From Octopus sinensis (taxonomy: Eukaryota), in contig NC_043002.1 of assembly GCF_006345805.1 (NCBI RefSeq), positions 9,300,001 to 9,364,000 on the forward strand: a stretch of DNA of 64,000 nucleotides. Direction: 5' to 3'. Below are positions 4,549 through 55,805 of the stretch, piece after piece. Position 1 is the first letter of the stretch. Each line of letters begins with the position of its first letter. A program made the position numbers and the translations under genes. Under the pieces are notes generated by a model. That model did no database searches and was not told the DNA's origin. It saw only the letters and a list, made by a program, of their open reading frames with translations.

Positions 4549-4549
<1 letters not shown>

Positions 4550-5638
4550 ATTATCAATTACACCAAGTAGATTTCGAGGAAAATTTAAGTAATACTAAGT
4601 AATTAAGGGTTTAGCAACGAATTGCCTCACCAACACACCGAATATAGAAATAGCAGTCAAAGAGATATAGCTATTCCTTCTACTAAAAGGGGGATCTCAG
4701 TAAAAACACAGCACCTGAAAGGCAAACACAGACAGGTAAGAAGAAAGAATGAATGACGGCAATCTATCATACAATTTTAAGTTACCTACGGACGTACGTT
4801 TCGAAATCAAGTTTTAGGAAAGCATAAGAATTAGAAAATTCTACCTTACCCAAACTTCTTTTCTCATCGGCGCAGGATACTACAATTATGAATAATTGTA
4901 TATTAAATTTTGAGATACTAGAAGGCATTATCTCAACTCAGTGTCAGAGCGAGCCAAAGCATGACCAGTACCACGAAATTCAAAGTGTGAATGAAAGTTT
5001 GGTCACCAGCCCCCTTCCACCCGCGTGTAGCCAAGACAAAATGCTGTGGTCATTTACTGGGATAAAATATGGTTATCAGTAACAATAAAGGGTGAAATTA
5101 ATTAATTTGGAATAATTATCAATTACACCAAGTAGATTTCGGCATGTAAAAGCCCCATTCGAGGAAAATTTAAGTAATACTAAGTAATTAAGGGTTTAGC
5201 AACGAATTGCCTCACCAACACACGAATATAGAAATAGCAGTCAAAGAGATATAGCTATTCCTTCTACTAAAAGGGGGATCTCAGTAAAAACACAGCACCT
5301 GAAAGGCAAACACAGACAGGTAAGAAAGAAAGAATGAAATGACGGCAATCTATCATACAATTTTAAGTTACCTACGGACGTACGTTTCGAAATCAAGTTT
5401 TAGGAAAGCATAAGAATTAGAAAATTCTACCTTACCCAAACTTCTTTTCTCATTTTGTGGTACTGGTCATGCTTTGGCTCGCTCTGACACTGAGTTGAGA
5501 TAATGCCTTCTAGTATCTCAAAATTTAATATACAATTATTCATAATTGTAGTATCCTGCGCCGATGAGAAAAGAAGTTTGGGTAAGGTAGAATTTTCTAA
5601 TTCTTATGCTTTCCTAAAACTTGATTTCGAAACGTACG

Positions 5639-5639
<1 letters not shown>
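4549..5639 (-). mobile_element. Non-coding tandem plus inverted repeat module (Penelope pLTR or retrozyme-like) embedded in (TA)n
   Basis: Direct repeat starting AATTATCAATTACACCAAGTAGATTTCG at 4549 and 5114; 5457-5639 is the reverse complement of 4792-4974; TA repeats on both sides. Confidence 0.8.
4785..4876 (-). ncRNA. Minimal type I hammerhead ribozyme (candidate)
   Basis: Minus strand: CCUGCG-CCGAUGA-G[long stem II]C-GAAA-C-GUAC-G-UC-CGUAGG; 6 bp stem I, palindromic stem III loop, GUC cleavage triplet; U4-to-C deviation from the consensus core. Confidence 0.75.
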
Positions 5640-5672
<33 letters not shown>

Positions 5673-5700
5673 TGCATATATATATACATATATCTATATA

Positions 5701-6455
5701 TGCCCTAGGGGTGGAGTGAAAATACTTTTGAATTGCTCATTTAGTATTTCACTTATCCTCATTGGATTTCCTGTGAGTGTACCATCTTTTTCGAGGAGTG
5801 GCCCTATCCTACAGTGCACCGAAGCTGTTTCTTTGGCAAACTTGTAGAAAGCTCTAGGGTTTGATTTTATGTTGTCTATAGCCCAGGCTTCTTTGTCTGC
5901 TCTTTCATTTTCATGGGAGAGTTGCAGACTTTTTTCAATTTCCAGTAGATTTATTTTCAGGCGGGACTTTTCACTTTCAATTTGTTTGTTTAGGCGATTT
6001 GAAACTTTTGTACGCCGTCTCATAAGAATTTTCCTCTCCCTGGGGATTTTGTTCTTGTGTACAGTGGCCTTTCTCTCTGGGACACATTTTTAGCATAAAA
6101 TATGGCTTGCATTACAGACATGAATTGTTGAAGTTTCATGTCGATGTCTGGTGAGGAGAGACATTCAGGCCAGTTTTGTTTGAGGATCTCTTTCTCAATT
6201 TGTTTCCAGTTTGCCTTATGGAAGTTCAAGCTGGAAAGATTCTGAGAGTTTCTTGTAGGCTGTATGTCCATGCTTTCCTTTGGCCCATACATGGTCAGCT
6301 CTACCATATTGTGATCCGAGAGTAGCGTTGGTGTCACTTTCACATTATGGATGAGATCCATATTATTTGTGAAGCAGAGATCCGGCATGTTACCTGCCCT
6401 GGTTGGTTGGAGTACTATTTGCTCCATGTACAAAGTGTTGATGAGGTTCAGGAGG
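5701..6455 (-). mobile_element. CR1/L2-group LINE fragment (endonuclease C-terminus and linker)
   Basis: QIVLQPTRAGNMPDLCFTNN...LSDHNMV...NFHKANW...IKSNPRAFYKF...ILNEQFKSIFT; frameshifted. Confidence 0.8.
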
Positions 6456-8420
6456 TGCCGCTCTATCCAAAGTACTCCATGACACGTTGAAAGGTCGGGT
6501 TTCTTTTTCTTTTAACTCCCAGACATATTTCACCAGGCTGGTCTTCGTGCTATTTTTGGGGTATCTAAAGGAATTTTTATGCGAATAAAATCGGGTTTTA
6601 AAAGAATTTTCAGAAGCCCCTGTATAAGTCCTATATTCGCATGAGCCTTTTATCTGCACCTTGGCTCTATATATGATTCCTTTCTCCAGACATTTTCCTT
6701 CCAACGGACAGGAGGATCCATCTTTGCAATTACATTTTTTAAGAGGATCGGCACTATGCTTATTAGCAATTATCCTACTGTTCTGTTGGTTAACGAAAGA
6801 GGTAAAGTTTCTGCAGCAAGAATAGCTGATCTTAAGCGTTCTTCTATTAAATATTCTATAAAATTTATGATCCGGTTGAAAATGCCTAGAGACTAATTTC
6901 AAGAATTCTCTACCTATATTTGTTTTTACAGCCAAATTGAAAGCTGGGTTGAACCACAAAACTTTCCTGGTCCTAGTTCTACGCGTAGCATTACTACTAG
7001 CATTAAGTTGGTTATACTGGATCTTCTCAGAGAATCCACTATTCCTTAATGCACTATAGTAATAAGGTGTGGCATTTTGGAATGCTGCTTCATCTGAAGA
7101 AATTGACGATATTCGTCTACCTACATTACTGACTAAGTTCCTAAGAATAACTGGCAGATGATTTGATTCTTTGCTAATATAAGATAGCTTATCATTAGGC
7201 TTATGGTAAGGTTTAAATTTATCCGACCTTAAATCCAAATTTACATCTAAAATATCTACACTTTTCAGGTTAGCATCTATCGTAACCCATAATCCCATCC
7301 TTTGGAAGAAAGCAATAAGGTCCTTCCTAAGTTTATCTGATTCATGGCTGTTTAAATTATGGGTGACTATAAGGCCATCATCCCTATATAAACCTGCATC
7401 TATAAATGAGAATTCTATTTTTAGATTATGTAGAATATAGGCTCCTATGAGCATACATAACTCAGCCCCGTCGGTACATCGAAAAGAGAATCCTCGAAAA
7501 AAAGAAGTGATTTCCTTGCATGTATGATATCAATTTCCGAGTTATCGATGTTGAGATACTGCTTGGCGAAGTCTAATGCACTTAGGAGTAAAGTCCTAGA
7601 TATTGATGGGTAAAAGTCAATAAAATCAAACTGCATAAAATTGCAGTTACGCTTATAGTTAATCCCTTTGAACCACTCTATAACTGACTTATTATTCTTC
7701 CAAATTCTCAAGTCTAATTCACTATCTAACTTAGTTAAAATATAGTCCAAAATATATTTCAGTTTTAGCCGGATTGATCAATCTACATTTGGGGTTTCTA
7801 TTAAAATTGGCTTTATGGTCTTTTAGGGTAATAATAGCGGGTCGCAGGGGAAAGATATTCTATCCTATCACTATTCTTAAAATTGTTAGCTATTCTTCTT
7901 GCTTCCAAATTCACCTCTTTGTATATATTTGTGTTATCTTTTTTGTATGTATCTGTGACGCTATTCGAAATTAGACGCTTGCAAACGTCCTTATCAAGTG
8001 CATATAAGTTTCTTGTCTTATCAGACTTAACGAAGATCTTATTCCAGTTGTTAATTTCCTTAATATTTTTCTTTCATATTTCTCTGTAATTGGTTGCTAT
8101 ATTTATGGAATTTAATTTTTCTAATAAGTTTGAAAAGGTCTTTCTCGAAGGCTTCTAATTCCGCAATAGGTGGTGGAAGATTTAAGTCCGTATTTGCTTC
8201 CATTGGTTTTCTGTTTAGTATCAAAGAAGAAGGCTTTCCATCTCAATCTTCGAACAAACTCTTCCGTTTTCTCTATAAGACTTTTGAGATATTGTTTTTG
8301 TGTAGGGATAGGTATATTTTTCTGAGAAAAATCCAGTGGGTAAAGTTCCATCATTTTCAGCTGTTTCTTCTCCCTACTTGTGTAGAGTCATTCAAACTTT
8401 TCTAAAAAAAGAGCAGGTTT
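6453..8420 (-). mobile_element. Penelope-like element (RT plus GIY-YIG endonuclease), degenerate
   Basis: RRLRWKAFFF N-terminus, QFDFIDFYPSI, GLYRDDGL, DILDVNLDL, CNC...CPLEGKC, GIIYRAKV...TYTGASENSFKTRFYSH; several frameshifts. Confidence 0.92.
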
Positions 8421-8677
8421 ATATTCATATCATCATCATCATCATAATTTAATAATTGCCTTCCATACATACATATCTTCAAAGTGAGATGGCCGACATT
8501 CAATTAGTCACACTTTGAAGATAATAGAATATTTTAGTGCTTGTCATTAATTGCCCATCGAATATAAAGTATTAATTATAAAATGGTGAAAAAAAAAAAG
8601 AAATTCCATTTTATTCGTAATATCTGTTCCAAAAGTTTGCCTAGGATATGGTTGCTTGATGCTCCTTATATATGAGA

Positions 8678-10135
8678 CATCATCATCATCATCATTTAAT
8701 GTCCATTGTCCATGCTGGCATGGGTTGGACAGTTTTACTGGGCTGGCATGCTGGAAGGCTGTGCCAGGCTCCAGTCTGATTTGGAATGGTTTTCTACAGC
8801 TTGATGCCCTTCCTAATGCCAACCCTTCCAAGAGTGTAATGGGTGCTTTTATGTGCCACCAGTACAGGTGTCATTTGCATGACACTGGTATCTGCCACAA
8901 CTGCAATTTTGCTCAGCTTGATGGGTCTTCTCAAGCATGACATAATGCCAAAGGTGAGGCCCAACACTCAAAAGGAACTCAGCCACTTTGCTTCCATGAG
9001 GCCCAATGCTCAAAGGTTGATTTTTTTTTAATGCCTCCAGCACGTGTCCCCTTAAGTAGAGCACATCACCATCGGTCTCAGTTACTAGTCATTGCCTTCA
9101 TGAGGCTCAAAGTTTGAAGATCATGTTTCACCACCATCTCCCATGTCTTCCTGGGTCTACCTCTACCGCAGGTTCCCTCCACAGTTAGAGATCGGCACTT
9201 CTTTACACAGCCACCCTCCTCTATATGCTTCACATGACCATACCAGCACAGTTGTCTCTCTTGCACACCATCTTTGATTCCTCCTGTGCCTAACTTTTCT
9301 CTCAAGATGCTTAGACTCTGTCAAACATGCACACTGGCATTGCACATCCAACGAAACATACTGGCTTCTTTTCTCTCTAGCCTACACATGGGCTGTTATA
9401 ACCCATGTTTCACTGCTATGCAGCATAGCATCAAACAATCTGCCTTTCACTCTGAGAGAGTGGCCCTTTGTTGCCAGCAGGGGTAGGAGCTCCCTGAACT
9501 TTTCCCAGCCTAATCTTATTCTCACAGCTACGCTCTTGGAGCATCCATCTCCACTACTAACCTGGTCACCTAGATACCGGAAGCTATCCACTACCTCTAG
9601 TTTACCCTACTGGCTGTTGATGGAGTCTATTTTCTGTACATGTTCAGCATTTATGATGCCTGTGCACCTTCCACATACAAAAGTTAGTTTCTCTGCTAAC
9701 CTTCCTTTGATGTTGCTGCACCTTTTGTGCATCCAAAGCTTTCTCTGAGTGCATCTTATGGAGTTTCTACCTGAGGAGATTTCTGATTTGTCTGCCTTCT
9801 TACTTAATATGACTTTGGTTTTTGCTAGGTTAACTCTAAGGCTCTTTGATTCTAGACCTTGATTCCATACCTGGAACTTTTTCTCTAGTTCTGGTAGTGA
9901 TTCAGCTATATGAATAAGGTTATCAGCTTAGAGGAGCTCCCAGGGGCAGCCTGTCTTAAATTCCTCTGTTATGGCCTGGAGGACTATGATGAAAACCAAT
10001 CCTTGGTGAATCCCTACTTGTACCCTAAACTCTCCGCTGTACTCATTTCCCACCCTCACCTTACTGGTAGTGTCCCTGTACAAGGCTTGTACAGCTCTCA
10101 CCAAACACTTGTCTATCCCTAGCTTCCAGATTGAC
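8678..10135 (-). mobile_element. 5'-truncated RTE LINE (RT, PHD-like finger, 3' UTR, ATG tail)
   Basis: KLGIDKCLVRAVQALY...GCPWELL, DSFRYLGDQVSS, GRGRPRKTW; same family as 22720-26420. Confidence 0.9.
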
Positions 10136-10142
10136 CACCAGA

Positions 10143-10500
10143 TAGTGTTTCTACAGCTGGATGCCCTTCCTAATGCCAACCACTCTGTGAGTATAGTGGG
10201 TGCTTTTTACATGTCACTGTCACAGGTGCCAGGCGAAGCTGGCAACAGCCACGATCGGTTGGTGCTTTTTACATGCCACCGGCACAGGGATCACAACTAC
10301 AATTTCCATTGATTTTTGATGTTGATGTACTTGACTCAATAGGTCTCCTCAAGCACAGGGTCGAAACGGGGTTTCTTTACTTGCCACCTGCACAGGAGTC
10401 AGTCCAGCGGCACTGGCAACTGCCGGGTGCCAGTCATAGGATTGGTTCAATTTTGATTCTGATTTTCACTTGCCCCGACAGGTCTTTGCAAGCCTAGGTT
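10143..10500 (-). mobile_element. RTE 3' UTR internal fragment
   Basis: GTGTTTCTACAGCTGGATGCCCTTCCTAATGCCAACC plus array units. Confidence 0.75.
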
Positions 10501-10504
10501 CAAT

Positions 10505-11110
10505 TTTGATGTGTTGAAAATTTTGATAACTTTACATGGATGTCATTAGACACAGTTCTAACATGGGAACATGTAGAATCATCTTGTCCAGTGATAAAAA
10601 AACAAAGATATAAAAATTGACAACATTATTTTCTGTCAGTGGTCAACATTAAAAAAATTCCTTGCTAAAGAGATGCAGATCAAACCCGATGAATGGAAGC
10701 CCAAACTGTGCCATGGAAGATGGTTTTCTATCTTTCAGGAGATTGAATTTCAAGAACAATACTCAGAGTTGTTAATTTTGAGCCAATTTCTATTTAGCAT
10801 ACCAGCTTTTTCACTTTTTTTTAGAAATTTTTTCTTTTGTGGTAATCCGTATTTAGAGAGCTGATCTTCAGTTTGGCTGTTGTAATATTTTGAAAATGTG
10901 ATTCGTCGTTTAGCTGCTGTTTCTAGCATATCATTCTCAATGATGAATGTTCAGTGGACCGAGGAAGGAAATGAATTGGACGTAGCTACTGTAGAAGCTT
11001 TCTTACAATGCACATGGAACCTTAACTGTTAATGTAAAGAATTTTATAGGCATGTGTTAGCAAACAAGGACCTGTTAACAAAAGCTATATCATTAGTGAA
11101 ATATAATTAA
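10505..11110 (+). pseudogene. hAT transposase C-terminal (dimerisation domain) relic
   Basis: WFSIF...YSELLILSQFLFSIPA-[125 bp insert]-FSMMNVQWTEEGNELDVATVEAFLQCTWN...CKEFY...VKY resembles the hAT C-terminus; a hAT-type right end ATCTGGCAACCCTG lies at 13459-13472. Confidence 0.7.
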
Positions 11111-11300
11111 AGGTAATGGTTCGAGTTTAATTCTCTTGTGGTCTGTTAAAAAAAATTCTGCATACAAGTTTATTAGTTCAGTTTCTTTTCAAGTTCTCCA
11201 TATGAAACAACTTGTTCATCTATTTTATGTACTGCTTGCATTAAATAGTAATTTTCTAAATTATTTCCTTTGCATTTTTTTATTGTCTTGTAACGACAAT

Positions 11301-15126: not shown

Positions 15127-15159
<33 letters not shown>

Positions 15160-15215
15160 ATATATATAATATATATATATATATCTATATATATATATAT
15201 ATTATATATATATAA
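15127..15215. repeat. (TA)n microsatellite
   Basis: Direct reading. Confidence 0.9.
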
Positions 15216-20337: not shown

Positions 20338-20359
20338 CAAATAGTGTATGTGCAAAGTG

Positions 20360-20975: not shown

Positions 20976-22153
20976 TTTAGTATAAGAGAAAAACTCAGCC
21001 TATCCACATGTAAAAAGCACCCTTCAAACTTAATACTACTAATTATAACTACAGCAAATTAGTAACAAAAATAGGGTTTAAATATACTTGCTACTTATCT
21101 AAAAATTTATTATATAAGTAAAGTAATTTATGTCCAAATTTAATTTTATGCTCATCCAATGATTTAATCAATTTATGATTATTAAATATTATTTCCTTAA
21201 ATTCATTAGTACATAATAAACAAGAATTACTACCTATACTAAAAGATTTTGCCTTAGAAACTGTCTCCCACATTAAATTATACTTAATTCATTTAGATTT
21301 AAGTTCCCGTATATATTTACTAAGCCCAGTAGAATTAATTAAATTTCTATTCTTAAAGGAATTCATATGTTGAGCCACCCTTCATTTAATTTTATTATAA
21401 GTCGACCCTATATAGATTGCTTTAAGTTATAATCATTCCTATTATTATCATCAATTAAAGTAACTATATATTTATAAACAACATCATGAAAATTACATTT
21501 ATCATTAAATATACATTTATTTTTATCTCTACATGTACAATTAATTACAATGTTATCTTTATTACTATTATTGGAATCATTATTTAATTTGCTTTTGTAA
21601 AATTTATTCAACTTAAATTTATTAAAAGAAGAAATAATGTTACTTACATTATTAGTGGTAGAATAACCAACTCCAAAATTATTACTAGAAAAAATTTTAT
21701 TATATTTTCTATTATCCCGAATGAATTGTTCAATTATATTTAAAATCTCTTTAATAATATTAGTTTTTATTTGAGCTCCATAACGAACAATTAAACAAAT
21801 TTTATTCCTATTATTTATATCATCATCATTATTATTATTATTATTATTATGTTTCTTTTTAATATTATTAAAATTATTATTATCATTCATTGAATTAAAA
21901 TTAGTCTTATTTTAATTTTTGTTTTTTCTTTGATTATTATTCTTATGATTTGTATTATCGTAATATCTATTTTTAAGGCCATAATTATCTAAATAAAACT
22001 TATCATAATTTTTAATTTTATTATTATGTAAATCATTAAAATTATAATCTTTTATATTATAATTATAATTAGTATTATTAAAGAATTTAATATTATTATT
22101 ATATCCTGCCTCTAACAGACCTTCATTATAATAAGGTGCATGTTTATTGAAAA

Positions 22154-22556
22154 CTAGCAGCATAGCCCGGCGTTGCCCGGGTATGTAAGAGCCCCTAGTA
22201 GGCAACGACTAATCCCAATCTAGTCCTTTCCCTCAAGGGAACGAAGGCGCATGTGTAGGTTGCAATGTCTTCTCTTCACTCGAATACTTCTGTGTATACG
22301 ATGTTCCTAGCTGTCGAGTTGTGTCCCCTCGACAGAAAATGTGTTGCATATAAAAAGCTTAGATTCTCGACCCCATGTCAAATTTATCGATTTTTTTCAG
22401 AACTGGGGGAACTTTTCAAAATTTTCGCTGCGTTAGTTTTGAATTATGACATTGGGCTATGTGTGTGTCAAGTTTCATCAGAATCGGTTGAAAGCCGTGG
22501 TCAGGGTGAGGGTACAACCTGACAGACAGACAAACTGCCGTTTATATAGAGAGAGA
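22154..22556 (-). mobile_element. Non-autonomous Helitron (second subfamily)
   Basis: Minus strand TCTCTCTCTATATAAACGGCAG...CCCGGGCAACGCCGGG...CTAG; A|T target without TSD; removal restores the PLE reading frame. Confidence 0.88.
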
Positions 22557-22719
22557 TCTCTAAATCATAAGAAAGTAATGATATTCTTTTACCAATATTA
22601 TTTATCAACAAATTTTTTAATTGAGGGTGGGTGATTACTATTAGCATTTATATATCTAAGGTTTTCATTAAATTTGTGATATGGTTGGGTTTTACCCATA
22701 ATTAAATTAAAATTAACAT

Positions 22720-25700
22720 GCGAGCTTTCTTTTCAGGTACACGAAGCTACTGTCCACCGTCCCAGGGTCTCTAGAGCCCATGCCTCCCACACCCTCAGGG
22801 TTGGCACCCTCAACGTTGGCACTCTGAAAGGTAGGTCTGGTGAGATAGTCGAGATGCTTGAACGGAGATGTGTGGATATATGTTGCATGCAAGAAATAAG
22901 GTGGAGAGGAGGATCAGCTAGGTTCCTCACAGGCAAGGAACGCAGGTACAAGATTTTCTGGGCAGGGACACTGAGGGGTTGGTGGCGTGGGTATACTTAT
23001 CGCTGAGAAATGGGTAGATAAAGTAATTGAGGTAATCAGAGTATGTGACAGAATACTTAAGATTAGATTAGTGCTTAATCATAGTTTAGCAACCATTATA
23101 TCAGCCTATGCTCCTCAGTCGGGGCTACCCGATGGACAGAAAGACCGATTCTATGACACTCTACTGCAGACTACCTCGTTGACGAACGACAGAGACCTTA
23201 TCTTTGTGGCTGGTGACTTCAATGGTCACGTTGGACGACATGCTGGGGGCTTCCATGGCGTACATGGAGGCTATGGCTATGGCTCCCGCAACGAGGAGGG
23301 AACCAGGCTGCTGGAGTTCTGCGATGCAAATAATCTTATGATTTGCAACACTAACTTCAGGAAACCTACCAGCCACCTAGTCACTTACCAATCGGGCCAA
23401 CATACCAGCCAAATTGACTACATCCTTACAAGGCAAAGGGAGAGATGGCTGCTTATAAATGCCAAAACCTTCCCAGGTGAAGAATGTACCCCACAACATA
23501 GACTGGTAGTTAGTGACTTTAGGATCAGGACTAGGAGGACAACCAGAAGACGACAAATATGGAGAAGAAGGATCTGGAAGCTTAAAGATCCTGCAAATGG
23601 ACAGAGATTTAGGGACATATTACTTGAAGCCTCTGACGAAGTAGAGGGGATAGAGCATCACAGGGGGTAGTAGAAGACTGGACGTTTCTAAGGGACAACC
23701 TGCTGAGAGCCACTGACCAGATCTGTGGCTGGTGCAAAGTCCCCTCTCGACCTAGAATAACGTGGTGGTGGAACAATATTGTAGACAGGGCTATTAGAGA
23801 AAAGAGACAGGCTTGGAAGGTCTGGAAAAATGGGGGTAGCAGGGGATTGTATCAGACTGCCAAAAGAGAAGCTAGGAGACAGGTTTATTAGCCAGAGGGG
23901 AAGCAGATAAGAAAAAATTTGCCAATGTTCTGCGCCGTGAGGACCAAAGACTGGAGGTGTTTCGTGTTGCAAGACAGTGTGTGAGAGAGAATCGTGATGT
24001 GGTAGGAGAGAAGTGTGTTCGCATGGAAGATGGTTCACTTGCGCTAAATGAGGATGCAAAGAGAGAGGTTTGGAGATGCCACTATGAAAGGTTGCTGAAT
24101 GAAAGAAAATGAATGGGATAAAGAGAGTCTGCCGAATGTTGACCCAACAGAGGGACCAGCTATCCAAGTTGATAGTTCCGTGGTAGCTAAGGCAATTAGA
24201 AGCATGAAGACAGGGAAAGCCCCAGGCCCATCAGGAATCACTGCAGAGATGCTCAAAATGTCTGGTAGTGTCGGCTATAGCCTAGTCACCCGTATAGTTA
24301 ATCAGGTGATACACAAAGGGGTCATACCCAATGACTGGTGTAGCAGTATAATAGTCAACTGCTACAAAGGTAAAGGTGATGCCCTAGATACAAATAACTA
24401 CAGAGGTATCAAGCTGTTGGACCAGGTGATGAAGGTTACGGAGAGGGTCATAGCCCAACTAATTAGAGAGAGAGTTAGTTTAGATGAGATGCATTGGGTT
24501 TGTTTGTGCCAGGGAAAAGTACTACTGATGCTATATTCCTGGTAAGGCAGCTGCAGGAGAAATACCTAGCCAAAGATAAGCCCCTGTACCTGGCTTTTGT
24601 TGACATGGAGAAAGCCTTCGACAGGGTCCCCCGATCCCTTATCTGGTGGGCAATGAGGAAACTAGGGATAGATGAATGGTTAGTGAGAGCTGTGCGGGCC
24701 ATGTACAGGGACGCCGCTAGTAGGGTGAGGGTTGCAAATGTGTACAGTGAAGAATTCCGGGTAGAGGTAGGAGTCCACCAAGGCTCAGTACTCAGCCCCC
24801 TCCTATTTATCATAGTCCTCCAGGCAATAACGGAGGAATTCAAGACAGGATGCCCTTGGGAGCTCCTCTATGCTGATGACCTTGCTCTAATTGCTGAGTC
24901 GCTATCAGAACTGGAGGAGAAGTTTCAGGTGTGGAAACAAGGATTAGAATCGAAGGGCCTCAGAGTCAATCTAGCTAAAACCAAAGTCGTAATCAGTAGG
25001 AAGGTAGACAAATCACAAACACCTTCAGGTAGATGGCCCTGCTCGATCTGTAGAAAAGGTGTAGGTAGAAACTCTATAAGATGCACCAAGTGTAAGCTAT
25101 GGACACATAAGAGATGCAGCAATGTCAAAGGAAGGCTAACTAGGAGATGGTTTTTGTATGTGGCAGATGCTCAGGAACAATAAACACTGAAAATGCTCTG
25201 AGACCAACTTCCGTCACTTTCCAGGGAGAAAAACTAGAAATAGTTGATAGTTTCCGTTACCTAGGTGACCAAGTCAGCAGCGGGGGCGGGTGTGCTGAAA
25301 GTGTAACTGCTAGAGTAAGAATAGCTTGGGCAAAGTTCAGAGAGCTCTTACCTCTACTGGTGACAAAAGACCTCTCGCACAGAGTGAAAGGCAGACTGTA
25401 TGATGCGTGTGTACGAACAGCCATGCTGCATGGCAGTGAAACATGGGCCGTGACTGCTGAGGATATACGTAAGCTCGCTAGAAATGAAGCCAGTATGCTC
25501 CGATGGATGTGTAATGCCAGTACTCACACTCGGCAGAGTGTAAGTACCTTGAGAGAAAAGCTGGACCTAAGAAGCATCAGTTGTGGTGTGCAAGAGAGAC
25601 GTTTGCGCTGGTATGGTCATGTGGCGAGAATGGATGAAGATAGTTGTGTGAAAAAGTGCCACACCCTAGCGGTTGAGGGAACCTGTGGAAGAGGCAGACC

Positions 25701-26420
25701 CAGGAAAACCTGGGACGAGGTGGTGAAGCACGACCTTCGAACTTTAGGTCTCACTGAGGAAATGACTAGAGACCGAGACCTCTGGAAGTGTGCTGTGCGC
25801 GAGAAGACCGGCAGGACAAGTGAGTCCATAACCCGTGGCCTTCTACATGGGATGGAGCCAGCCTACGTATGCATACCTTCCCTTCTTGGGACACAAAACT
25901 CTACTTGTGAAGACGTGATGAGGCAAGTGAGGATCAGAATCGAAATCGATCAATGGAAATTGCGGATGTGCTACCAGTGCCGGTGGCATGTCAAAACTCT
26001 GCTTGTGAAGACCCGTTGAGGCAAGTGACGATCAGAATCGAAATCGATCAATGGAAATTGCAGATGTGTTACCAGTGCCGGTGGCATGTAAGAGAACTTT
26101 CCGTTTCGCGACCGTTGCCAGCACCGCCCCGTTTCGTGTCCGTTGCCAGCCTCACCTGGCCCTCGTGCCGGTGGCACATAAAAAGCACCATCCGTTCGTG
26201 GCCGTTTGCCAGCTCTGTCTGGCACCAGTGCGGGTGGCACGTAAAAAGCACCCACTACACTCACGGAGTGGTTGGCGTTAGGAAGGGCATCCAGCCGTAG
26301 AAACACTGCCAGATTTGACTGGGCCTGATGAAGCCTTCTGGCTTCACAGACCCCAGTAGAACCGTCCAACCCATGCTAGCATGGAAAACGGACGCTAAAC
26401 GATGATGATGATGATGATGA
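22720..26420 (+). mobile_element. Near full-length RTE-clade LINE (AP endonuclease, RT, PHD-like finger, repeat-array 3' UTR, (ATG)n tail)
   Basis: VGTLNVGTL, CMQEIRW, AGDFNGHVG, SQIDYIL, PQHRLV, KAPGPSGI, NYRGIKLL, FVDMEKAFDRV, GVHQGSVLSPLLF, LLYADDL, FRYLG, RRLRWYGHV; about six small indels break the single ORF. Confidence 0.95.
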
Positions 26421-38552: not shown

Positions 38553-38931
38553 ATAATGCAGGAAGAATGAAAAAGCTAACAAGAAAAAATTATGAAGAAA
38601 AAGCAATATTAATAAATTACCAATATTTTCTTTAACTGGCTGTACACTTGTTCCAAGAAAATTGGAAGAATTTTTCAGGGCTGCTGGGCTATGAGGCATG
38701 TAACATGTTGCAACATTATGACAAAGAAAGAATTATATGGAAAGGAACTTTTTTCTAGTTGCTAAAGAGAACGGGGGTTGGTATTTATCAGTGTGAAAAC
38801 CTGATTTGACATAAGCTGTTTTCCATTCCATAACTTTCAGTTCAAGTCTATCCACCAGGTCTACTGGCCTCACAACTTCCCTACCAGTTGAGTTACAAAG
38901 GATAAAGAAAGAAAAGTAATTGCAATAATTC

Positions 38932-39201
38932 TGTTGTGCCTGGGGAGAGTCGTTTTCTTTTTGTGCCTTATAATATAACATACTCACCGGTAAAATTTCA
39001 TTTTTATTCTCCTAAAATTTTCGTTGCGTCTTGCAACCTTTTCAATAGTTTTGACTCTGAAAAAAGTCAAAACTATTGAAAAGGTTGCAAGACGCAATGA
39101 AAATTTTAGGAAAATAAAAATAAGAATAAAGTGGAAATTTTACTGGTGAGTGTGTTATATTATAAGGCACAAAAAGAAAATGACTCTCCCCAGACACAAC
39201 A
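38932..39201. repeat. Long hairpin (about 125-137 bp arms, 8 nt loop) with a hammerhead-like motif in each arm
   Basis: 38932-39056 is the reverse complement of 39065-39201 apart from a few substitutions and one indel. Confidence 0.9.
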
Positions 39202-39285
39202 AAATATGTTTCAACACACGAACTCATGTAAAGAATCTTGCAAACCAAATCCAAAAATGAAATAATTACAATAAAGTTACATTAT

Positions 39286-40795: not shown

Positions 40796-43228
40796 TCAAG
40801 TATCAGTATCCATTGGAGACTCTTCACAATGTTGATGTGTCTCAGGAACATATCTGGTTGTGGATTGTTCAGGCTTGGAAGGGAGATACTGGTGTTCAAT
40901 GAGAGTGTCTTCAGGTTTGATGCTGGCATCGTACATCTTTCTAAGAAACTGCTGTGTAGTTGATGCTGGCTGTGCTTTGGAGATATCTTGGTCAACACTA
41001 ACACTTTCATGAACATCAACAAAGTGCGATGGGGGCATTTCAATCACAGGCAACTGTTGAGATGAGGCAGGGTTATTGTTTCCAGTAGAAGTGAGATCAA
41101 CACCAGCTGACTGAAAAGCTGATTGGTGTACTGTAATAAGCTTTTCTGGACTAGTTGATTCTTGTATGACCATTTCTTGAACTGTTTCTTCAGAAATAAC
41201 TTCACAAGATTCTAATGATGTAGGCTTAGATTTACAAATGATTGTGCAAGATTCAATAGTAGTTGGCTGAGGAGTACTTGGAGATGGCAATGAGCTTGGA
41301 GTATCAACTAGAGTTTGATTTTTAGATGGCTCTGAGGGAAAATAACTGCTGATGGGATTGATGATGGCTAAGTTTTCTGGGGTGGGCAATTCTAATCTTT
41401 TTTTTGTGTTGTGTTCAACTGGAAATATTTCAGTTGAGCTTTGGTGAGGTTTTGCATCCTTCTGACTGTTATTTTCTACTGAAACAATGGGTTGAGATTT
41501 TATACTAGATGATTCCTTTTTAGGGGTAGAAATTTCAACAGAGGTTAAATCCTTGTTCACATCTGAAGGAAAACTAGGAGTTTTCTCAGTTTTCAGTGAA
41601 CATGACAAGCTAGTTGTTGGTTTGGGTTCTGCTATAACTGATTGTGCTTTGGGGTGATCAATACGTGATACATCTAAGGACCTGGGTTGAGTAACAGTAT
41701 GGTGTTCAGACTCTTTGTTAATAGTAGGGCTTGGTATTAAACTAGTTTCCCTTTCAGTCACATTTGATGTTGGCACTGAAACAGATATCTCTTTATGGGC
41801 CAGATTTGGTGATGGCACACATGAAGGCATCTCTTTCTGAGCAACTACACACAGCTCTGCTTTTGGTTCAATATTAGCCTCTGACACTGTTGGAAATTGT
41901 TTTTTAGGAATTGCAACAGGAGCAGTTTCTTTTTGAAATTCTTTCACTGATGAAGATTTGTTTGCTTCAGACACATTTGCTGACAACACAGCATGGGGAT
42001 CTTGTGGAGGAGTAGCTTCAGTAACTGATGTTGGCATTAAACTCTCTTTTTTGTGATCATGAGCTGTGGCTACTGAACTAGAAGATTCTGTGGCAGCAAG
42101 ACATTGAGGGGAAGATTTTTCACAAACATTTAAATCCCAAGAAGAGGTAACTGTTTCGCTCTTGCTATGTTTTGAACTTGTTGACACTTGTTTATGTTTA
42201 GACATTGAAGAGAAATCTTTATGACTGAAATTAGAATGAGAATCTGATTTTGAAACTTTGGGGACAAAACTGGACCCAAGCCCTGATTTTGATGATTCAT
42301 GTTTAGTAACAGAAGGTTTTGTAGCTATTTTAAATGCTTCGTGTTTAGTGTGTGGTTTGGATTCTGAAGATAAAAATTCAGGTTTGGTCACAGAAAATGT
42401 AGATTTTGATAATGATTCTTGCTTTTTAAAAGGATTTTGTGTGCATGACAGAGATTTTTGTTTAACAGTGTGGGAATAATCTTGTGTAACTATAGTTGGA
42501 ATTTGTGCTTTGCTAGAATGCTCAGATTTAACAAAAGAATATTTTGAAACTGAAGGACTCTTATGTTTGTGTGCTGGATTTTGTGTTACTGAAGAACTGT
42601 CTCGTTTCATAGAAGGATGATCATGTCCTGAAATCTTTCTTTCAGATTTGCTCACAGAAGAACTTGGCTCCTTATGTGTGAATGAAGGCTCCTTTTTGGT
42701 AACAGAATGCTCTTTTTTCCCTGACAATTCCAGTTTACAACCAGATGCTTTCTTGTGGTGTTTGCCACTGGAATCGGGAATCACAGACTGGGAATCATGA
42801 TGGCTTTTAGAAATTGATTCTGACTTGGTATGACAGACTATGGTTTGTGGAGCTAATGGTACAGATTCATGTGGCTGCTTTTGTGGATGTGATGAATGTG
42901 TATGATTATCAGGAGTTAGCTGCTTGGCTTCAGGGTCTTCTGACTTTACATTGTGAACTGAAGGTTCTTGCTTAACAGAGCTTTCTTGTTCCATAGGTTC
43001 TTCTTTGTTTTTATCTGCTTCGTCCTCATCATCAGTTTGAAGATCAGGATAGTAGCTGCGTAATCTCACATGCCAAGCAATGCTTGTAACTGCTGACACA
43101 GTTTTGAACTGGTGTACAACATTCCTTGGGATAAAATAGATATCATTATGTCGGAGTTGAATACGTGCATAACGGATACCTTCTCTATGCAACTGGTTCA
43201 ATTTTGCATCCTCCACCCAGGTAACACA
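40796..43228 (-). CDS. RSBN1: Terminal coding exon of RSBN1/RSBN1L-like lysine demethylase (KDM9 family): end of the conserved domain plus a long low-complexity tail
   Basis: Acceptor ttttctAG|TGT; translates [56 protein letters not shown], matching the RSBN1 conserved block as I recall it; open to TGA at 40798-40796; phase 0 agrees with the preceding exon. Confidence 0.92.
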
Positions 43229-46373: not shown

Positions 46374-46387
46374 CGGGTTTTTTTATA

Positions 46388-47889: not shown

Positions 47890-48193
47890 TTTGGCTGTCT
47901 GGCCTCCGTGCCGGTGGCACGTAAAAGACACCATTCAAGCGTGATCGTTACCAGCATCACCTTACTGGCACCTGTGTAAAAGATTCAAGTGAAGTTGTTG
48001 CCATTACTGCCCCCATGCCAGTGGTACGTAAAAGCATCCACTACACTCACGGAGTGGTTGGCGTTAGGAAGGGCATCCAGCTGCAGAAACTCTGCCAAAT
48101 CAGACTGGGCCAGGTGCAGCCATCTGGTTCGCCAGCCCTCAGTCAAACTGTCCAACCCATGCTAGCATAGAAAGCGGACGTTAAACGGTGATG
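47890..48193 (+). mobile_element. RTE 3' UTR fragment
   Basis: Array units plus conserved end. Confidence 0.85.
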
Positions 48194-48440
48194 TTTGCAT
48201 TCAATTTGCAGTTCAGGCATATACTCTTTTACTCGTTTCAGTCATTTGACTGCGGCCATGCTGGAGCACCGCCTTTAGTCGAGCAAATCGACCCCGGGAC
48301 TTATTCTTTGTAAGCCCAGTACTTATTCTATCGGTCTCCTTTGCCGAACCGCTAAGTGACGGGGACGTAAACACACCAGCATCGGTTGTCAAGCAATGCT
48401 AGGGGGACAAACAGACACACAAACACAGACACACACACAC

Positions 48441-48461
48441 ATATATATATATATATATGTA

Positions 48462-48537
<76 letters not shown>

Positions 48538-48549
48538 ATATATATATAT

Positions 48550-48591
<42 letters not shown>

Positions 48592-48612
48592 TATATATGT
48601 ATATATATATAC

Positions 48613-48674
<62 letters not shown>

Positions 48675-48682
48675 TATATATG

Positions 48683-48724
<42 letters not shown>

Positions 48725-48767
48725 TATTATATATAGATATATGTATATATATATATGTATATATATG

Positions 48768-48799
<32 letters not shown>

Positions 48800-48969
48800 A
48801 TTATATATATATATATAATATAGATATATATATATATATGTATATAGATATATATATAATATATATATATGTATATATATATATATTATATATATATTAT
48901 ATATATAATATATATATGTATATATATATATATAATATATATGTATATATTATATATATATATATAATG

Positions 48970-49001
<32 letters not shown>

Positions 49002-49037
49002 ATATATGTATATATATATATAATATATATATATATG

Positions 49038-49072
<35 letters not shown>

Positions 49073-49131
49073 ATGTATATATATGTATATATATATGTAT
49101 TATATATATATGTATTATATATATATATATA

Positions 49132-49172
<41 letters not shown>

Positions 49173-49246
49173 ATATATATATATTATGTATATATATATA
49201 TTATATATTATATAATATATATATATATGTATATATATATAGATAT

Positions 49247-49281
<35 letters not shown>

Positions 49282-49398
49282 TGTATATATATATATAATA
49301 TATTATATATATATATAATATATATATATATGTATATATATATATGTATATATATATATAATATATATAATATATATATATTATATATATATATATAA

Positions 49399-49448
<50 letters not shown>

Positions 49449-49523
49449 TATATATATATATATAATATATATGTATATATATATGTATATATATTATATA
49501 TTATATATATATATATATATATG

Positions 49524-49558
<35 letters not shown>

Positions 49559-49609
49559 ATATATATATATATATTATATATATGTATATATATGTATATA
49601 TATAATATG

Positions 49610-49643
<34 letters not shown>

Positions 49644-49812
49644 ATATGTATATATATATATATGTTATATATATATATATGTATATATATATTATGTATA
49701 TATGTATATATATATATATAGATAATATATATATATATAGATATATATATATATATATAGATATATTATATATAGATATATATATATATATAGATATATA
49801 TATATTATATAT

Positions 49813-49845
<33 letters not shown>

Positions 49846-49952
49846 TATATATAGATATATATATATATATAGATATAATATATATATAGATATATATATA
49901 ATATATAGATATATATATATATATATATATATAAGATATATATATATTATAT

Positions 49953-49985
<33 letters not shown>

Positions 49986-50321
49986 TATATATATATATAT
50001 ATAGTATATATATATATATAAGATATATATATATATAGATAATATATATATAGATATATATAATATATATAGATATATATATATAATATAGATATATATA
50101 TATATATATAGATTATATATATATATAATATATAATATATATATATTATATAGATATATAGATATATATATATATATATATGATATATATATATATATAG
50201 ATTATATATATATATAGATATATTATATATATAGATATATATATATATATATTAGATATATATTATATATAGATATATTATATATATATATTATTATATA
50301 TATATATATATATATTATAGA

Positions 50322-50354
<33 letters not shown>

Positions 50355-50542
50355 TATATATATATAGATATATATTATATATATAATATAGATATATATA
50401 TATATATAATATATATAGATATATATATATATATATATACATATATAGATATATATATATATATATATAGATATTATATAGATATATATATATATTATAT
50501 ATACATATATAGATATATATATATATATATATAGATATATAT

Positions 50543-50579
<37 letters not shown>

Positions 50580-50598
50580 TATATATATACATATATAT

Positions 50599-50640
<42 letters not shown>
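48441..50640. repeat. About 2.2 kb imperfect (TA)n tract (TATG-interrupted, then TAGA-interrupted)
   Basis: Direct reading; a second tract lies at 51254-51655. Confidence 0.97.
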
Positions 50641-50642
<2 letters not shown>

Positions 50643-51252
50643 TGTTGTCCACTGTGGTCTCCTACTGTTGTCCACTGTGGTCTCCCCACACAATACAAGG
50701 TATCATAAAAGTCGAAGCACCTCAAAGGGCAATCACAAAAAAGATAGATGGCATGACAGGCCTCGACTATTGGGGTCGACTAGAAAGCTAAAACTCTATT
50801 CTCTCCAACGTCGTCGTGAGCGCTACATCATCTGCATGATGTGGAAAATATTCCATCAGCATTGCCCAAATGATGTTGGCATCACCTTAAGGTACATCCA
50901 AGGCTTGGGCCCCGTGCCATCCGCCCAAAACAAAAATCGCACTCTCATCTCATAACAACAATACGGCACAATTATTTCACCTCAATTGGCCCCGCTCTCT
51001 TTAACATTACACCAAAACACATTAAAACAGAACTGACCCTATAGGGTTCAAGAAGTCCTTGGACAGATTCCTTCAAGAAATCCCGGATAAACCCCCTACA
51101 CCCGGATATGTCTCTGTAAACAATAACTCTCTACTTGAGTGGGCCATAGTGCCCAAATTCTGACTTGAAAGACTTCACCAGGTGGTGCTATTAAGTTAGA
51201 CATGGCCTGGGCCAATAATGGCCGAAACCTATCAAAGTATCAAAGTATCAAA

Positions 51253-51253
<1 letters not shown>
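50641..51253 (+). mobile_element. CR1-like LINE 3' end with (AAGTATCA)n tail
   Basis: [54 protein letters not shown]; tail ATCAAAGTATCAAAGTATCAAAGTA. Confidence 0.85.
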
Positions 51254-51306
<53 letters not shown>

Positions 51307-51331
51307 TACATATATATATATATATATATCA

Positions 51332-51371
<40 letters not shown>

Positions 51372-51543
51372 CATGTATATATATATATAATGTATATATA
51401 TATATACATGTATATATATATATACATGTATATATATATATATAATATGTATATATATATATATATATATATATTGTATATATATATATACATATACATA
51501 TATATATATATATATATTATATATGTATATATATATATTACAT

Positions 51544-51615
<72 letters not shown>

Positions 51616-52269
51616 CATATATATATACATATATATATACATATATACATATATACGACAGGCTTCTTTCAGTTTCCGTCTACCAAATCCACTCACAAGG
51701 CATTGGTCGGCCCGGGGCCATAGCAGAAGACACTTGCCCAAGATGCCACGCAGTGGGACTGAACCCGGAACCATGTGGTTGGTTAGCAAGCTACTTACCA
51801 CACAGCCACTCGCACATACTCCTAATATTATTATTACTCATAAAGATTAGGTCTGTAGATTCATTTAATGCCATACTCCTTACAATATCATGCTTAACTT
51901 AACAAGCCTGCCTTTAACTGTAGTTAGACCTATAATTGTAAAGAGACTCTTTGCTTTTAATATCAGAATACGAACGCATTCACGGTGCAATGTGTCAACT
52001 ACATAACTGAGGAGAGGGAGACTGCTGCCATTGATAAAGAGAAAATAAGAGAATTCACTTAACCAGAGAGACAGGTAAAGTTCCGTCAAATAAATAAGCA
52101 AATGAAAAATGGTAGACAAGAGGAAAAAATATGATTATGAATTTCTTAAAAAGATGAGATGGCTAAACCTATGTGATAAAGTCATCACTTCATTTTGATA
52201 TTGTTTATTATCACCATTGATCATGTACACTTTTCTATACTGGCATAGACTTTCTAGAACAGTGTTTTG

Positions 52270-52648
52270 GGATCTTTTCGGTTTGAACGGCAGTTTTTAA
52301 CATAATTTCTAGGTAACTAAAAAATTTTAAACTTTGTATACTGGTAGAATGTGTTTATAAAACATCTTTTTCTCTTGGCTTTATTGAGAAAATTCTATAG
52401 TTTGTAAGATATTTGTTGTTGTTTTTCTTCAATTTCTGCAATTTCAACCAATCAATAACGTCTATTGAGGTAAAAAAACATTCTGTGCCGTATGAATATG
52501 TCCCTCGTTTAAGAAACAGATTGGGTTTATTTACATTTGTGAAGAAAAAAAGATTGAAATGCAATAGATCGATACTAGGGTCATAATTATGGGTGACAAC
52601 TTCATATGACACTGCTAGAAAAAACTGCCGTTCAAACTGAAAAGATCC
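52270..52648. mobile_element. Merlin-like MITE (copy 2, opposite orientation)
   Basis: Same TIR as 11326-11711; TSD GTGTTTTG / GTGTCTTG. Confidence 0.88.
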
Positions 52649-53140
52649 GTGTCTTGTGGTTGGATGCTCTTCCTGTCATCAACATAGTGTTCATCTATTG
52701 CCGGTTGGGGTGTGTGGTTGTATGTGCATGCCCATCCCTACCAAAGTTGGATTTGATTAAAGCCAAACATTCCATTATAGCTACTAATAAAGCTTCAATT
52801 TTCCTTTATACTATTAATGCTTACCTGTGAATCACTACAGGTAAAATATTTGTAGCAGACAAAGAATTAGACAATATGATCTAAAAGTTATTAGAAGTAT
52901 ATACGCTGAGCTACTTTGTCTCATAAATTAACTCATTTCTTAAGCAATTATTGGTAAGAGTTGCAGACTAATCAAGGTGATGATTATTCTTGGTGCAGCT
53001 AAGCACCTACAAACAACAGAAATGCATATTCTGGAAATCTATTTTCATATTTACTATATTATTATCAGCGTGGAAGGTGTTTGTAAGCCATTTAAGAAAC
53101 ACACAAAAGCCGTTCGATTCACTTCAACGTTTAAGTTTAA

Positions 53141-53191
53141 TTTGTCAAAATATTTTCGTCGCTATAAGACCGCGACCTGTTCACTGACAAA
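53141..53191 (-). ncRNA. Variant minimal hammerhead-like motif (G3-C8 core), candidate
   Basis: UUUGUCA-GUGAACA-G-GUCGC(9 nt loop)GCGAC-GAAA-AUAU-UU-UGACAAA: 7 bp stem I, 5 bp stem II, palindromic AAUAUU stem III. Confidence 0.55.
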
Positions 53192-53242
53192 GATCCGTGC
53201 TGCATCCGAGATGCAGCATGGATTTTTGTCAGTGAACAGGTC
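53174..53242. repeat. About 33 bp-arm hairpin overlapping the hammerhead-like motif
   Basis: GACCTGTTCACTGACAAAGATCCGTGCTGCATC versus GATGCAGCATGGATTTTTGTCAGTGAACAGGTC. Confidence 0.85.
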
Positions 53243-53861
53243 CAGCACACGATCTCAGATCAAATCACTTGCTATGCAAGTACATCTCCCTATATTATTA
53301 TCGCCCCACTAAGAAAATCTGAAAAAAGTGTTCATTCACAAGCAAATAGATGAATACGTGACAAAAAAGGTTAACTGATTATTGTATTAATTGTAAACAA
53401 CAGTAATTTGTTTTAAACAAAATGAGACACTGCAAAAAGAAATGATTTTATGAGGGATAGAAAAAATGGATTTAGATTAGATACATTAAAAAATTTTTCT
53501 TTTTATAAACCAATCAGGTTTGGAGCTCGGAAGATTCTTTCAAACTGAGCTTGATGCAGCTATAATTGGCTAAAATATTTGTAGATCAATGTCTAAGAAA
53601 AATCATGAATGGGAGAGTTCCATTTGTAAAAGTTGGAATTCTAGGAAGGAAGGATTAGGAAAAGTATTTAATGTGGCATCTTAGGATCTAATACATATTA
53701 AGACCTGTTGATGATTGAATTGTTGCCATTTAGTCAACAGGCCGTCTTTTGAATTCAGTCCAGAATGTCAGTAGATGTTTACCAACAGTACCGTCCTATA
53801 GAGGTGAGCAGTAATATTCCAGTGTGGATCTTACTATTAATACACTAATAATAATCAGCTT

Positions 53862-54405
53862 CATCATCATCATCGTTTAACGTCCGCTTTCCATGCTAGC
53901 ATGGGTTGGACGATTTTGACTGAGGGCTGGCAAACCAGATGGCTGCACCAGGCTTCAATCTTGATCTGGCAGAGTTTCTACAGCTGGATGCCTTTCCTAA
54001 TGTTAACCACTCCGAGAGTATAGTGGGTGCTTTTATGTGCCAGTCAGGCGGTACTGGCAACGACCTCACTCGAATCTTTTACACATGCCACCGATGCGGG
54101 TGCCAGTAAGGCAATGCTGGTAATGATCACACTCGAATGGTGTCTTTCACGTGCCACTGGTGTGGAGGCCAGATATCCACTCTGGCAGCAATCAGGCTCG
54201 GATGGTGCTCTTAATACTCTACTAGCACGGGGCTCGATTGCCAGTAATGTGACGCTGGTAACAATCACGCTCGAATGGTGCCTTTTAAGTGCCACTTGCA
54301 CGGAAGCCGGTTAGCCGCTCTGTCAATGATTACACTCGTATAGTGCTCTTTGCACCCCGCTAGCATGGACACCAGTCATCGAATTTTATTTTGATTTTTG
54401 ATTTC
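53862..54405 (-). mobile_element. RTE 3' UTR fragment with extended array
   Basis: (CAT)n, conserved end, several array units. Confidence 0.85.
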
Positions 54406-55483
54406 AAATTTAAATAATGCCTTTAAAATACTTTCTTGCAATAAACCCTAACTTTTAGATGTTTTAGTTACCTAATTCATTGCCAAGATAATTGAAATTC
54501 AAGCATTTTTGAAATTAGTTAAAGAGAACAAGATAAATGAAAACTGTAAATCACAAATGATGACATTTGTTCTGCCGCTCAATTTTCAACTTTTACACAC
54601 AGAATATTTTAGAATCAGTTTAGTTAAAACATGAATAGTTGTTTCATTCCTTGTTGTATGTAGTCTTAGGTGTTGTCAAGAAGCAGATGCGTAGGTGGTA
54701 TGTGTAGGAGATACACAAGTACTGGTACGGATATGAAGCAAATGAAAAATGAATAAGTTCTGTTGCACGAAATGCAAACATTGTAATATCAAGTTATCAT
54801 GACTGGTTGTTTATCTTTTCCACCAGCAATAGACAATGTTAAAGTGTCAAAAATAAATTACAGACTGTGCACAAAATAAAGATAACCCACCAGAAACTGA
54901 GATATAACTGAAGTGAATGTATACTATACAAAAGTTACCCTTTATAAATGCCCTCTTGAAAAAAAGCGATTCCAGACAATAATTTCAGAAAAATCAGTGT
55001 TTAAATGTACACTATATTTATATGAATAATATATAGTCTACTGACTACTTTTCTACATGCTAGGCCACTGGTAGTAAAAAATTTCTAAAATTTTTTCTTA
55101 CCCTGATATTTATTAATTATTGATAATTTTTGGCAAATTTCCGAAGAAATGCTGGCATTAATTTTATTTGCTGCTGACAAAAAACTGCGCTTGTGTGGTG
55201 GATTTGAAAAATTATAATACGTAAGCAGAAATCATATGCTGTATTGCCTTGTATCTATATGTTAATCTTGGCGTGCCTGCTGAAGAAAGCTCCACCTAAC
55301 AAATTATTTTATTTGCTAATTTAGAGCTCGAAACCATGGTCCAGAAGATAGATGGTAAATGTTTTTATTTTTCATTCCCTTCGATTTTTATCTCTAATAG
55401 TGGTTTAGATTTTGGCTACTCCTTCCAGCATGCTAGGTGTCCTATGATGGTCACCTCTTATGTGTTTAAATGTACACTGTATG

Positions 55484-55527
<44 letters not shown>

Positions 55528-55725
55528 AATGGATGAATGAATTATCCTTTGTTTACCGTTAACATGGAAAATTCAATAAACAGTTACCATGGTAGCAAAA
55601 TTCACGCAAGTAACACGGATGAAGGCGATCTATTCAAAGGTAGAAACTCTGGGTTAATGTGCAGTAATTTGTGTATTATAAGTAAATAAAGGCAGTTGAA
55701 CAAAGATGCTATTAAAATTCTTTTA

Positions 55726-55805
55726 CTTTTGACATGTTTCGAAGACAACATGGTTTTATTCCAAAGGAATAAACGGTGTAAAATGCAATCTTCTCATCAG
55801 GAAAG
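55726..55805 (-). ncRNA. Minimal hammerhead ribozyme-like motif, candidate
   Basis: CUUUC-CUGAUGA-GAAGA[long loop]UCUUC-GAAA-CAUG-UC-AAAAG: canonical core, 5 bp stem II base, palindromic ACAUGU, GUC site; first stem I pair mismatched. Confidence 0.6.

Follow-up and report, generated by a model that had tools for sequence, protein, structure and literature searches.

Hammerhead folds with changing 3-8 core pairs in Penelope-like retroelement repeats of an Octopus sinensis genomic window

The minimal hammerheads described in Penelope-like retroelements (PLEs) have an extra core base, a palindromic stem III, weak cleavage as dimers and a U3-A8 pair (PMC4209133), and we compare them here with four families of hammerhead motifs, F1 to F4, found in a 64,000-nt stretch of the Octopus sinensis genome (contig NC_043002.1, positions 9,300,001 to 9,364,000 of the forward strand), hereafter the window. 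Features shared with the hammerheads of PMC4209133 are the type I fold, the palindromic stem III, the extra base between positions 9 and 10.1, the G10.1-C11.1 pair, a short stem I, the U3-A8 pair, and the occurrence mostly as solo copies, with opposite-strand pairs. The Schistosoma mansoni(4) row of that paper, with its UUGAAAA core, 4-nt palindrome and U17, is nearly identical in design to F4. The extra base, however, is H in the published PLE consensus and G in F3, F4 and a further octopus family, F5, whereas F1 and F2 have no extra base, a stem II of 50-60 nt and an 8-nt palindrome.

Three other reports describe related hammerheads. The small dimeric variants of Lünse et al. 2017, as far as they are outlined in the review PMC6765202, share the short stem III and the PLE association and cleave as dimers. 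The Poseidon element PAc of the green anole, in the sections of Frangieh et al. 2024 (PMC11167929) used here, likewise has a hammerhead near the start of its open reading frame (ORF), AT-rich targets, two internal starts of reverse transcription that give rise to its tail, and uncut RNA as its main template. The parts of Perreault et al. 2011 (PMC3088659) that we consulted report natural U3-A8 covariation and a viable U4C change in a viroid, two core changes that recur here, in hammerheads that are not associated with PLEs.

The four motifs of the window are type I hammerhead folds in PLE repeats, as their sequence and surroundings indicate. By analogy with the published systems they are likely to be weak, dimer-dependent self-cleaving ribozymes, and their 3-8 pair has likely been kept under selection while its identity switched between families (C-G, U-A, G-C). 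We assign this reading as a whole a probability of about 0.8, counting PMC4209133, PMC11167929 and PMC8557442 in its favour. The insertions and motifs are as follows, pLTR standing for pseudo-long terminal repeat and UTR for untranslated region.

4547..5639, no single strand: F1 insertion; about 1.5 head-to-tail 587-bp units at 4547-5453 (minus) and a 188-bp arm in inverted orientation at 5452-5639, with (TA)n on both sides
4785..4876, minus: F1 type I hammerhead motif; stem I of 6 bp, core CCGAUGA (C3-G8, U4C), long stem II, 8-nt palindrome ACGUACGU, predicted cut after GUC (4791)
5371..5453, minus: second F1 motif, 5'-truncated at the inversion junction, without the 5' strand of stem I and C3-G5
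5555..5639, plus: third F1 motif, in the inverted arm; ends at the palindrome, then (TA)n, without the 3' strand of stem I
38928..39264, no single strand: F4 insertion; two solo pLTR copies in inverted orientation, with the short 3' end in the minus arm and the long 3' end and start of the PLE ORF in the plus arm
39012..39048, minus: F4 minimal hammerhead motif; stem I of 3 bp, core UUGAAAA (U3-A8) plus extra G, stem II of 5 bp, palindrome AAUU, U17
39073..39109, plus: F4 mirror copy; C11.1 changed to U, giving a G-U pair
53066..53298, no single strand: F3 insertion; inverted pair, with the motif intact and the 3' end short in the minus arm, and an internal deletion after the core and the long tail in the plus arm
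53141..53191, minus: F3 minimal hammerhead motif; stem I of 7 bp, core GUGAACA (G3-C8) plus extra G, stem II of 5 bp, palindrome AAUAUU, U17
55491..56104, minus: F2 insertion; 5'-truncated 3' end (3' UTR/pLTR) of a Hydra-like PLE, ending in (TA)n
55726..55805, minus: F2 hammerhead motif; canonical CUGAUGA core (C3-G8), copy decayed in stem I and palindrome

The motifs at 4785, 39012, 53141 and 55726 thus lie on the minus strand and the mirror copy at 39073-39109 on the plus strand. An earlier sequence-only reading of the window, which named no strands, had given the coordinates, cores, palindromes and 3-8 pairs of these motifs correctly, except for the decayed F2 copy discussed below, but it had missed the F1 copies at 5555-5639 (plus) and 5371-5453 (minus). 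All four families contain the type I three-stem junction (N3-U4-G5-A6-N7-N8-A9, G12-A13-A14, A15.1-U16.1, H17) together with a palindrome, and depart from the standard core by U4C in F1, G3-C8 in F3, U3-A8 in F4 and the extra G in F3 and F4. Stems I and II, whose preservation the earlier reading had named as a test, are kept in the consensus of every family (each built from the top 30 loci). Exact-pattern counts over the 2.72-Gb genome, with the reversed pattern as control, gave 6,651 matches for F3 (control 0), 4,435 for the W3 class, nearly all of them F4 (control 1), and 197 for F1 (control 0).

The proposed link to PLEs was borne out. At other places in the genome, copies of F2, F3 and F4 are immediately preceded by GIY-YIG ORFs, and 5' truncation, inverted pairs and (TA)n flanks recur in all four families, in agreement with the anatomy of PLE pLTRs (5' truncation, inverted or tandem pairs, a tail at one end, microsatellite targets). 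We read the F2, F3 and F4 copies as truncated pLTR ends of protein-coding PLEs and F1 as the only stand-alone non-coding unit, so that the picture of four small independent RNA families is not supported. For F3, ORFs of 793 and 722 aa encoding reverse transcriptase (RT) and GIY-YIG domains lie about 1 kb upstream (loci L221 and L225), while the ORF end upstream of F4 (220 aa on the endonuclease, EN, side) is 48% identical to the F3-partner protein over 176 aa. F5, with a C3-G8 core and represented by 5 of the first 100 C3 matches, has a homologous ORF upstream as well. The partner ORFs of F3, F4 and F5 form one clade with support of 98/99 in a tree of 10 rows, two intended metagenome rows having been dropped because they had no aligned segment. 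The tails of the three families also align and translate to homologous peptides, with a weak match to the N-terminus of the homologue P0038 (E 0.4-2.6). This clade and the related tail peptides make F3 and F4 sister families, and the claim that the motifs at 53141 and 39012 belong to unrelated modules falls. The short linker of the F3 and F4 partner ORFs looks Nematis-like by eye (Craig 2021 Figs S1-S2), which is no formal placement. Each of the two families ends at either of two 3' sites, about 55-60 nt from one another, which agrees with published descriptions of PLE tails: 13 of 31 F3 arms carry the long 3' end and 15 the short one, and for F4 14 of 39 show both motifs and 18 are short only. 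Separately, at L229 (minus, 2748-806) an F3 3' UTR and motif are joined directly to a PLE ORF from a different lineage, which by eye looks like Penelope/Poseidon or Neptune; we interpret this arrangement as a chimeric or nested insertion.

In the F2 copy of the window the first stem I pair is a C-A mismatch and the palindrome is 2 nt short. The family has G at position 1.1 in 32 of 37 aligned rows (the top 30 loci and the window query), its consensus restores stem I, and its palindrome is the 8-nt ACAUAUGU rather than the ACAUGU of the sequence-only reading. The C-terminus of a GIY-YIG protein (EN end only) stands directly upstream of F2 in L083 and L227, and its likeness to the Hydra rows of Craig 2021 Fig. 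S2 is by eye, with no reference sequences in the tree.

F1 is a 587-bp unit in tandem and inverted arrays, with motifs spaced 584-596 bp apart and no ORF of 130 aa in the unit. It thus shows the non-coding tandem organization, with a single type I hammerhead to every unit, that characterizes non-LTR (long terminal repeat) retrozymes. As far as those elements are covered in the portions of PMC7229834 and bioRxiv 10.64898/2026.07.22.740005 used here, F1 resembles them in this organization and in its monomers, dimers and multimers, whereas it differs in the U4C core of its youngest subfamily, its long stem II and its PLE-like inversions. The first 100 F1 matches comprise subfamilies with CCGAUGA (43), CUGAUGA (16) and CUGAAGA (41) cores. 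Stem I shows one compensatory C-G/U-A change between subfamilies, the other variation among copies being neutral decay, and U4C, the mark of the near-identical, youngest subfamily, is likely derived. U4C also occurs with an extra A and a 4-nt palindrome in another family (L055:1171, plus; L105, minus), so that it is present in more than one family of the genome.

Directly 3' of the F1 motif, at 4785-4700 (minus), a stretch of about 75 nt with GT, a polypyrimidine run and CAG resembles a spliceosomal intron. Such introns are a known feature of PLE pLTRs. No spliced form of this stretch was present in contigs, and contigs of four sequencing runs on the F1 array had no splice or back joint; since such contigs cannot reveal RNA ends, we do not use this expression result as evidence. 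The F1 arm that ends at 5639 was considered as the mark of an RNA cut and set aside, being a single case with no pile-up of ends. A broken PLE RT/GIY-YIG ORF at 6390-7900 (minus; 379-aa open stretch, Hydra-like by eye, no family found for it in Pfam) is truncated at its 3' end and followed by a fragment of a long interspersed element (LINE; 5700-6400). We rejected this ORF as the partner of F1 because the LINE fragment stands between them.

All four family consensus sequences are Watson-Crick paired at 3-8, and three pair types occur within the single clade of F3, F4 and F5. We scanned 1.44 Mb of partly overlapping genome loci with positions 3 and 8 left free, and obtained 13 clusters besides F1-F4, comprising 10 C-G, 2 U-A and 1 A-G. 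Thus 12 of 13 clusters are Watson-Crick at 3-8, against 20 of the 49 matches in 60 rounds of shuffling a 400 kb random sample (binomial P=1.7e-4). One cluster has both C-G and U-A members, plus a U-G relative. In related metagenome loci the motif was found in 5 of 20, as 3 C-G, 1 U-A (two pLTR copies) and 1 A-G. The covariation claimed in the sequence-only reading therefore stands between families, but not among copies, where 3-8 covariation is absent and the variation is that of neutral decay.

Two further candidates were rejected: A3-U8 as a fourth pair, given that the repeated ATGAATA family lacks stem I and the palindrome in the two loci inspected, and a CTGAGTA family, for lack of an in-register stem II. 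We also discarded a C3-G8 subfamily of F4 (L267), whose count agrees with independent double mutation. A 352-bp tandem repeat (L066:86-880, plus; also L206, L081, L223 and L230) carries a canonical-looking type I hammerhead with C3-G8, and its relatives have U3-A8 or U3-G8 and an altered stem I. In a PLE relative on a metagenome contig (L310:4970-5030, plus), a CUGAAGA core is accompanied by GAAU in place of GAAA by eye, which suggests a U15.1-A16.1 variant.

The estimated chance of cleavage differs between the families. Cofolding of two copies gave the double-hammerhead form for F1 and F2 (-6.8 and -7.4 kcal/mol), and we consider cleavage by dimers of the F1 or F2 type probable. For F3 or F4 the balance tips only slightly in favour of cleavage. 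The F2, F3 and F4 copies of the window are probably inert, as are most solo and inverted copies in the genome. The two members of a mirror pair such as 39012/39073 are on opposite strands; a single transcript would therefore fold as a hairpin and not as a dimer.

Several observations weigh against an active, selected ribozyme. The lowest-energy dimer of F3 and F4 is not the active form, their palindrome duplex is marginal (-0.2 and +2.2 kcal/mol), both have a UUU triplet, and stem I of F4 has only 3 bp. Few copies have a 5' end that falls at most 4 nt from the predicted cut (F3, 2 of about 120 usable alignments; F4, 4 of 129; F2, 1 of 43; F1, 1 of 84), in a sample whose loci were mostly fetched by core-containing queries and which is therefore biased against ends at the cut. 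Stems I and III of F5 are not clean in its five copies, and no autonomous partner of F1 was present among the loci examined. As for the core pair, positions 3 and 8 mutate independently within families, and 92 of the first 100 C3 matches are C3-A8 mismatches; F4-like C3-G8 doubles amount to 3 of 100, which extrapolates to about 7 genome-wide and agrees with a chance expectation of roughly 10. The blind-scan test mostly shows conservation, since 10 of the 12 Watson-Crick clusters that it gave are plain C-G. Moreover, the G10.1-Y11.1 rule was added to that scan after a looser version had given 9 matches, 6 of them Watson-Crick (19 matches in 8 shuffles as control).

The 5' ends of copies cluster above the predicted cut instead, at 50-70 nt for F3 (its reference ran into (TA)n, and starts beyond +70 were discarded as noise) and at 40-50 nt for F4. 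We infer that this cluster is the transcript start, and by analogy it fits reverse transcription of uncut RNA from internal starts, as in the anole element. The lack of a pile-up at the cut, with ends 50-70 nt above it, together with the marginal stem III and inactive lowest-energy dimers, could also be expected if the F3 and F4 motifs were hammerhead descendants kept as a folded, non-cutting RNA signal, bound by the PLE protein or marking the transcript 5' end, with only the canonical or tandem families F1 and F2 still cutting. In the portions of PMC11167929 considered here, ribozyme mutants of the anole element had no effect on insertion in vitro and no RNA ends lay at the cut, which points the same way. 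Nevertheless, a non-catalytic role leaves unexplained that a tertiary pair of the core has remained Watson-Crick in each of its three identities within a single clade, along with the retention of G5, A6, A9 and GAAA, and the same portions report partial rescue of PLE hammerhead cleavage by an engineered C3G/G8C double mutation. We consider such a signal role unlikely.

Less probable still is that the 3-8 covariation was merely inherited, without selection, from a few founder sequences hitch-hiking in successful elements. The copies are not independent, there are about four independent departures from C-G (F3, F4, the L223 cluster and the L206 cluster), and A-G mismatches do occur, in one genome cluster and in one of the 5 metagenome motifs. 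Every departure from C-G takes two changes, however, and 4 of the 5 non-C3 genome clusters are perfectly paired, while U3-A8 recurs in another sample (L312) and in Schistosoma.

The window descriptor (stem I, core, stem II, GAAA, palindrome, UH) picks up F1, F3 and F4, the decayed F2 copy at 55726 failing it, and 30 shuffles of the window gave 0 matches with a Watson-Crick 3-8 pair required and 2 without. The sequence-only reading had suggested a comparison with Rfam, and in our scan of the window all 71 matches to E=5 were hairpin- or microRNA (miRNA)-type chance matches, none of them a hammerhead. That the motifs are chance matches of a permissive pattern in AT-rich repeat DNA, for which this Rfam result and the roughly 2.4 matches per 400 kb of the loose descriptor in shuffles might speak, is hardly credible and largely refuted by the empty window shuffles, by the stems kept in every consensus, and by the position of the motifs behind PLE ORFs, where published hammerheads lie, also in related elements of other samples.

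For PLE hammerheads that are weak and dimer-dependent, we propose the following course of events. The element protein would nick AT-rich DNA, as published PLE work suggests, and reverse transcription would begin internally on the RNA, at either of two points downstream of the motif. Copying would then run back to the RNA 5' end, which for F3 and F4 would lie about 13-30 nt above the core, and this would account for the thousands of solo pLTR copies and their frequent arrangement in inverted pairs. Most of the RNA that serves as template would be uncut. Where a transcript is full-length or tandem, two of its motifs would join by their palindromes, form stem III and cut, possibly with help from the element protein. 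Cleavage of F1 RNA would yield monomers of 587 nt, in the manner of a non-LTR retrozyme relying on a borrowed PLE protein.

The window contains other features. Besides the broken PLE ORF at 6390-7900, another and more decayed fragment of a PLE is found at about 21200-22800 (minus), and several RTE- and CR1-like LINE fragments lie at 22975-26019. A (CAT)n-headed repeat, with about a dozen copies in the window (e.g. at 1696, 27097, 32920, 39285 and 63126), belongs to an abundant family of short interspersed elements (SINEs) or LINE tails, and a 2-kb TA-rich microsatellite occupies 48400-50650. An 810-aa open frame at 40796-43228 (minus), whose first 70 aa resemble JmjC domains, is probably the last exon of a host gene, possibly an RSBN1-like one. 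F2 and F3 lie upstream of this frame on the same strand and may be intronic insertions in that gene, and F4 lies 1.7 kb downstream.

Published work already covers U3-A8, U4C, the extra core base, the palindromic stem III and cleavage as dimers, and most of what the sequence-only reading regarded as non-canonical is in print. Its expectation that a CUGANGA search would miss such cores is correct: the G3-C8 and U3-A8 families place about 11,000 motifs beyond the reach of that descriptor. Two things may be new, namely a natural G3-C8 family of high copy number and the occurrence of three pair types in a single lineage. G3-C8 is absent from the passages of PMC4209133 examined and, as a natural pair, from the parts of PMC3088659 that were examined. 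In the sections of PMC11167929 considered it is an engineered rescue mutant of PAc, whereas here it is the family consensus of thousands of copies in a different PLE lineage. The literature searched held only engineered cases, with Lünse 2017, Przybilski 2007 and supplements outside that search, where natural ones may be listed. It is a tentative proposal from sequence, to which we give rather less than even odds, that F3 is a natural, catalytically active G3-C8 hammerhead, new to print and present in more than 6,600 copies, which with F4 and F5 would form a natural mutate-and-rescue series at 3-8 in one PLE lineage.

PLE hammerheads and retrozymes are in themselves well-known systems. How far the hammerheads matter to the elements is put in question by their poor cutting and by in vitro insertion that proceeded with mutants. 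That sister families differ in their 3-8 pair, with three types among them, is evolutionary evidence for a selected active-site geometry, and these families supply ready-made wild-type, mismatch and rescue constructs. If F3 is indeed an active natural G3-C8 hammerhead, weak cleavage would be under selection in PLEs, and surveys based on CUGANGA would be missing thousands of ribozymes per genome.

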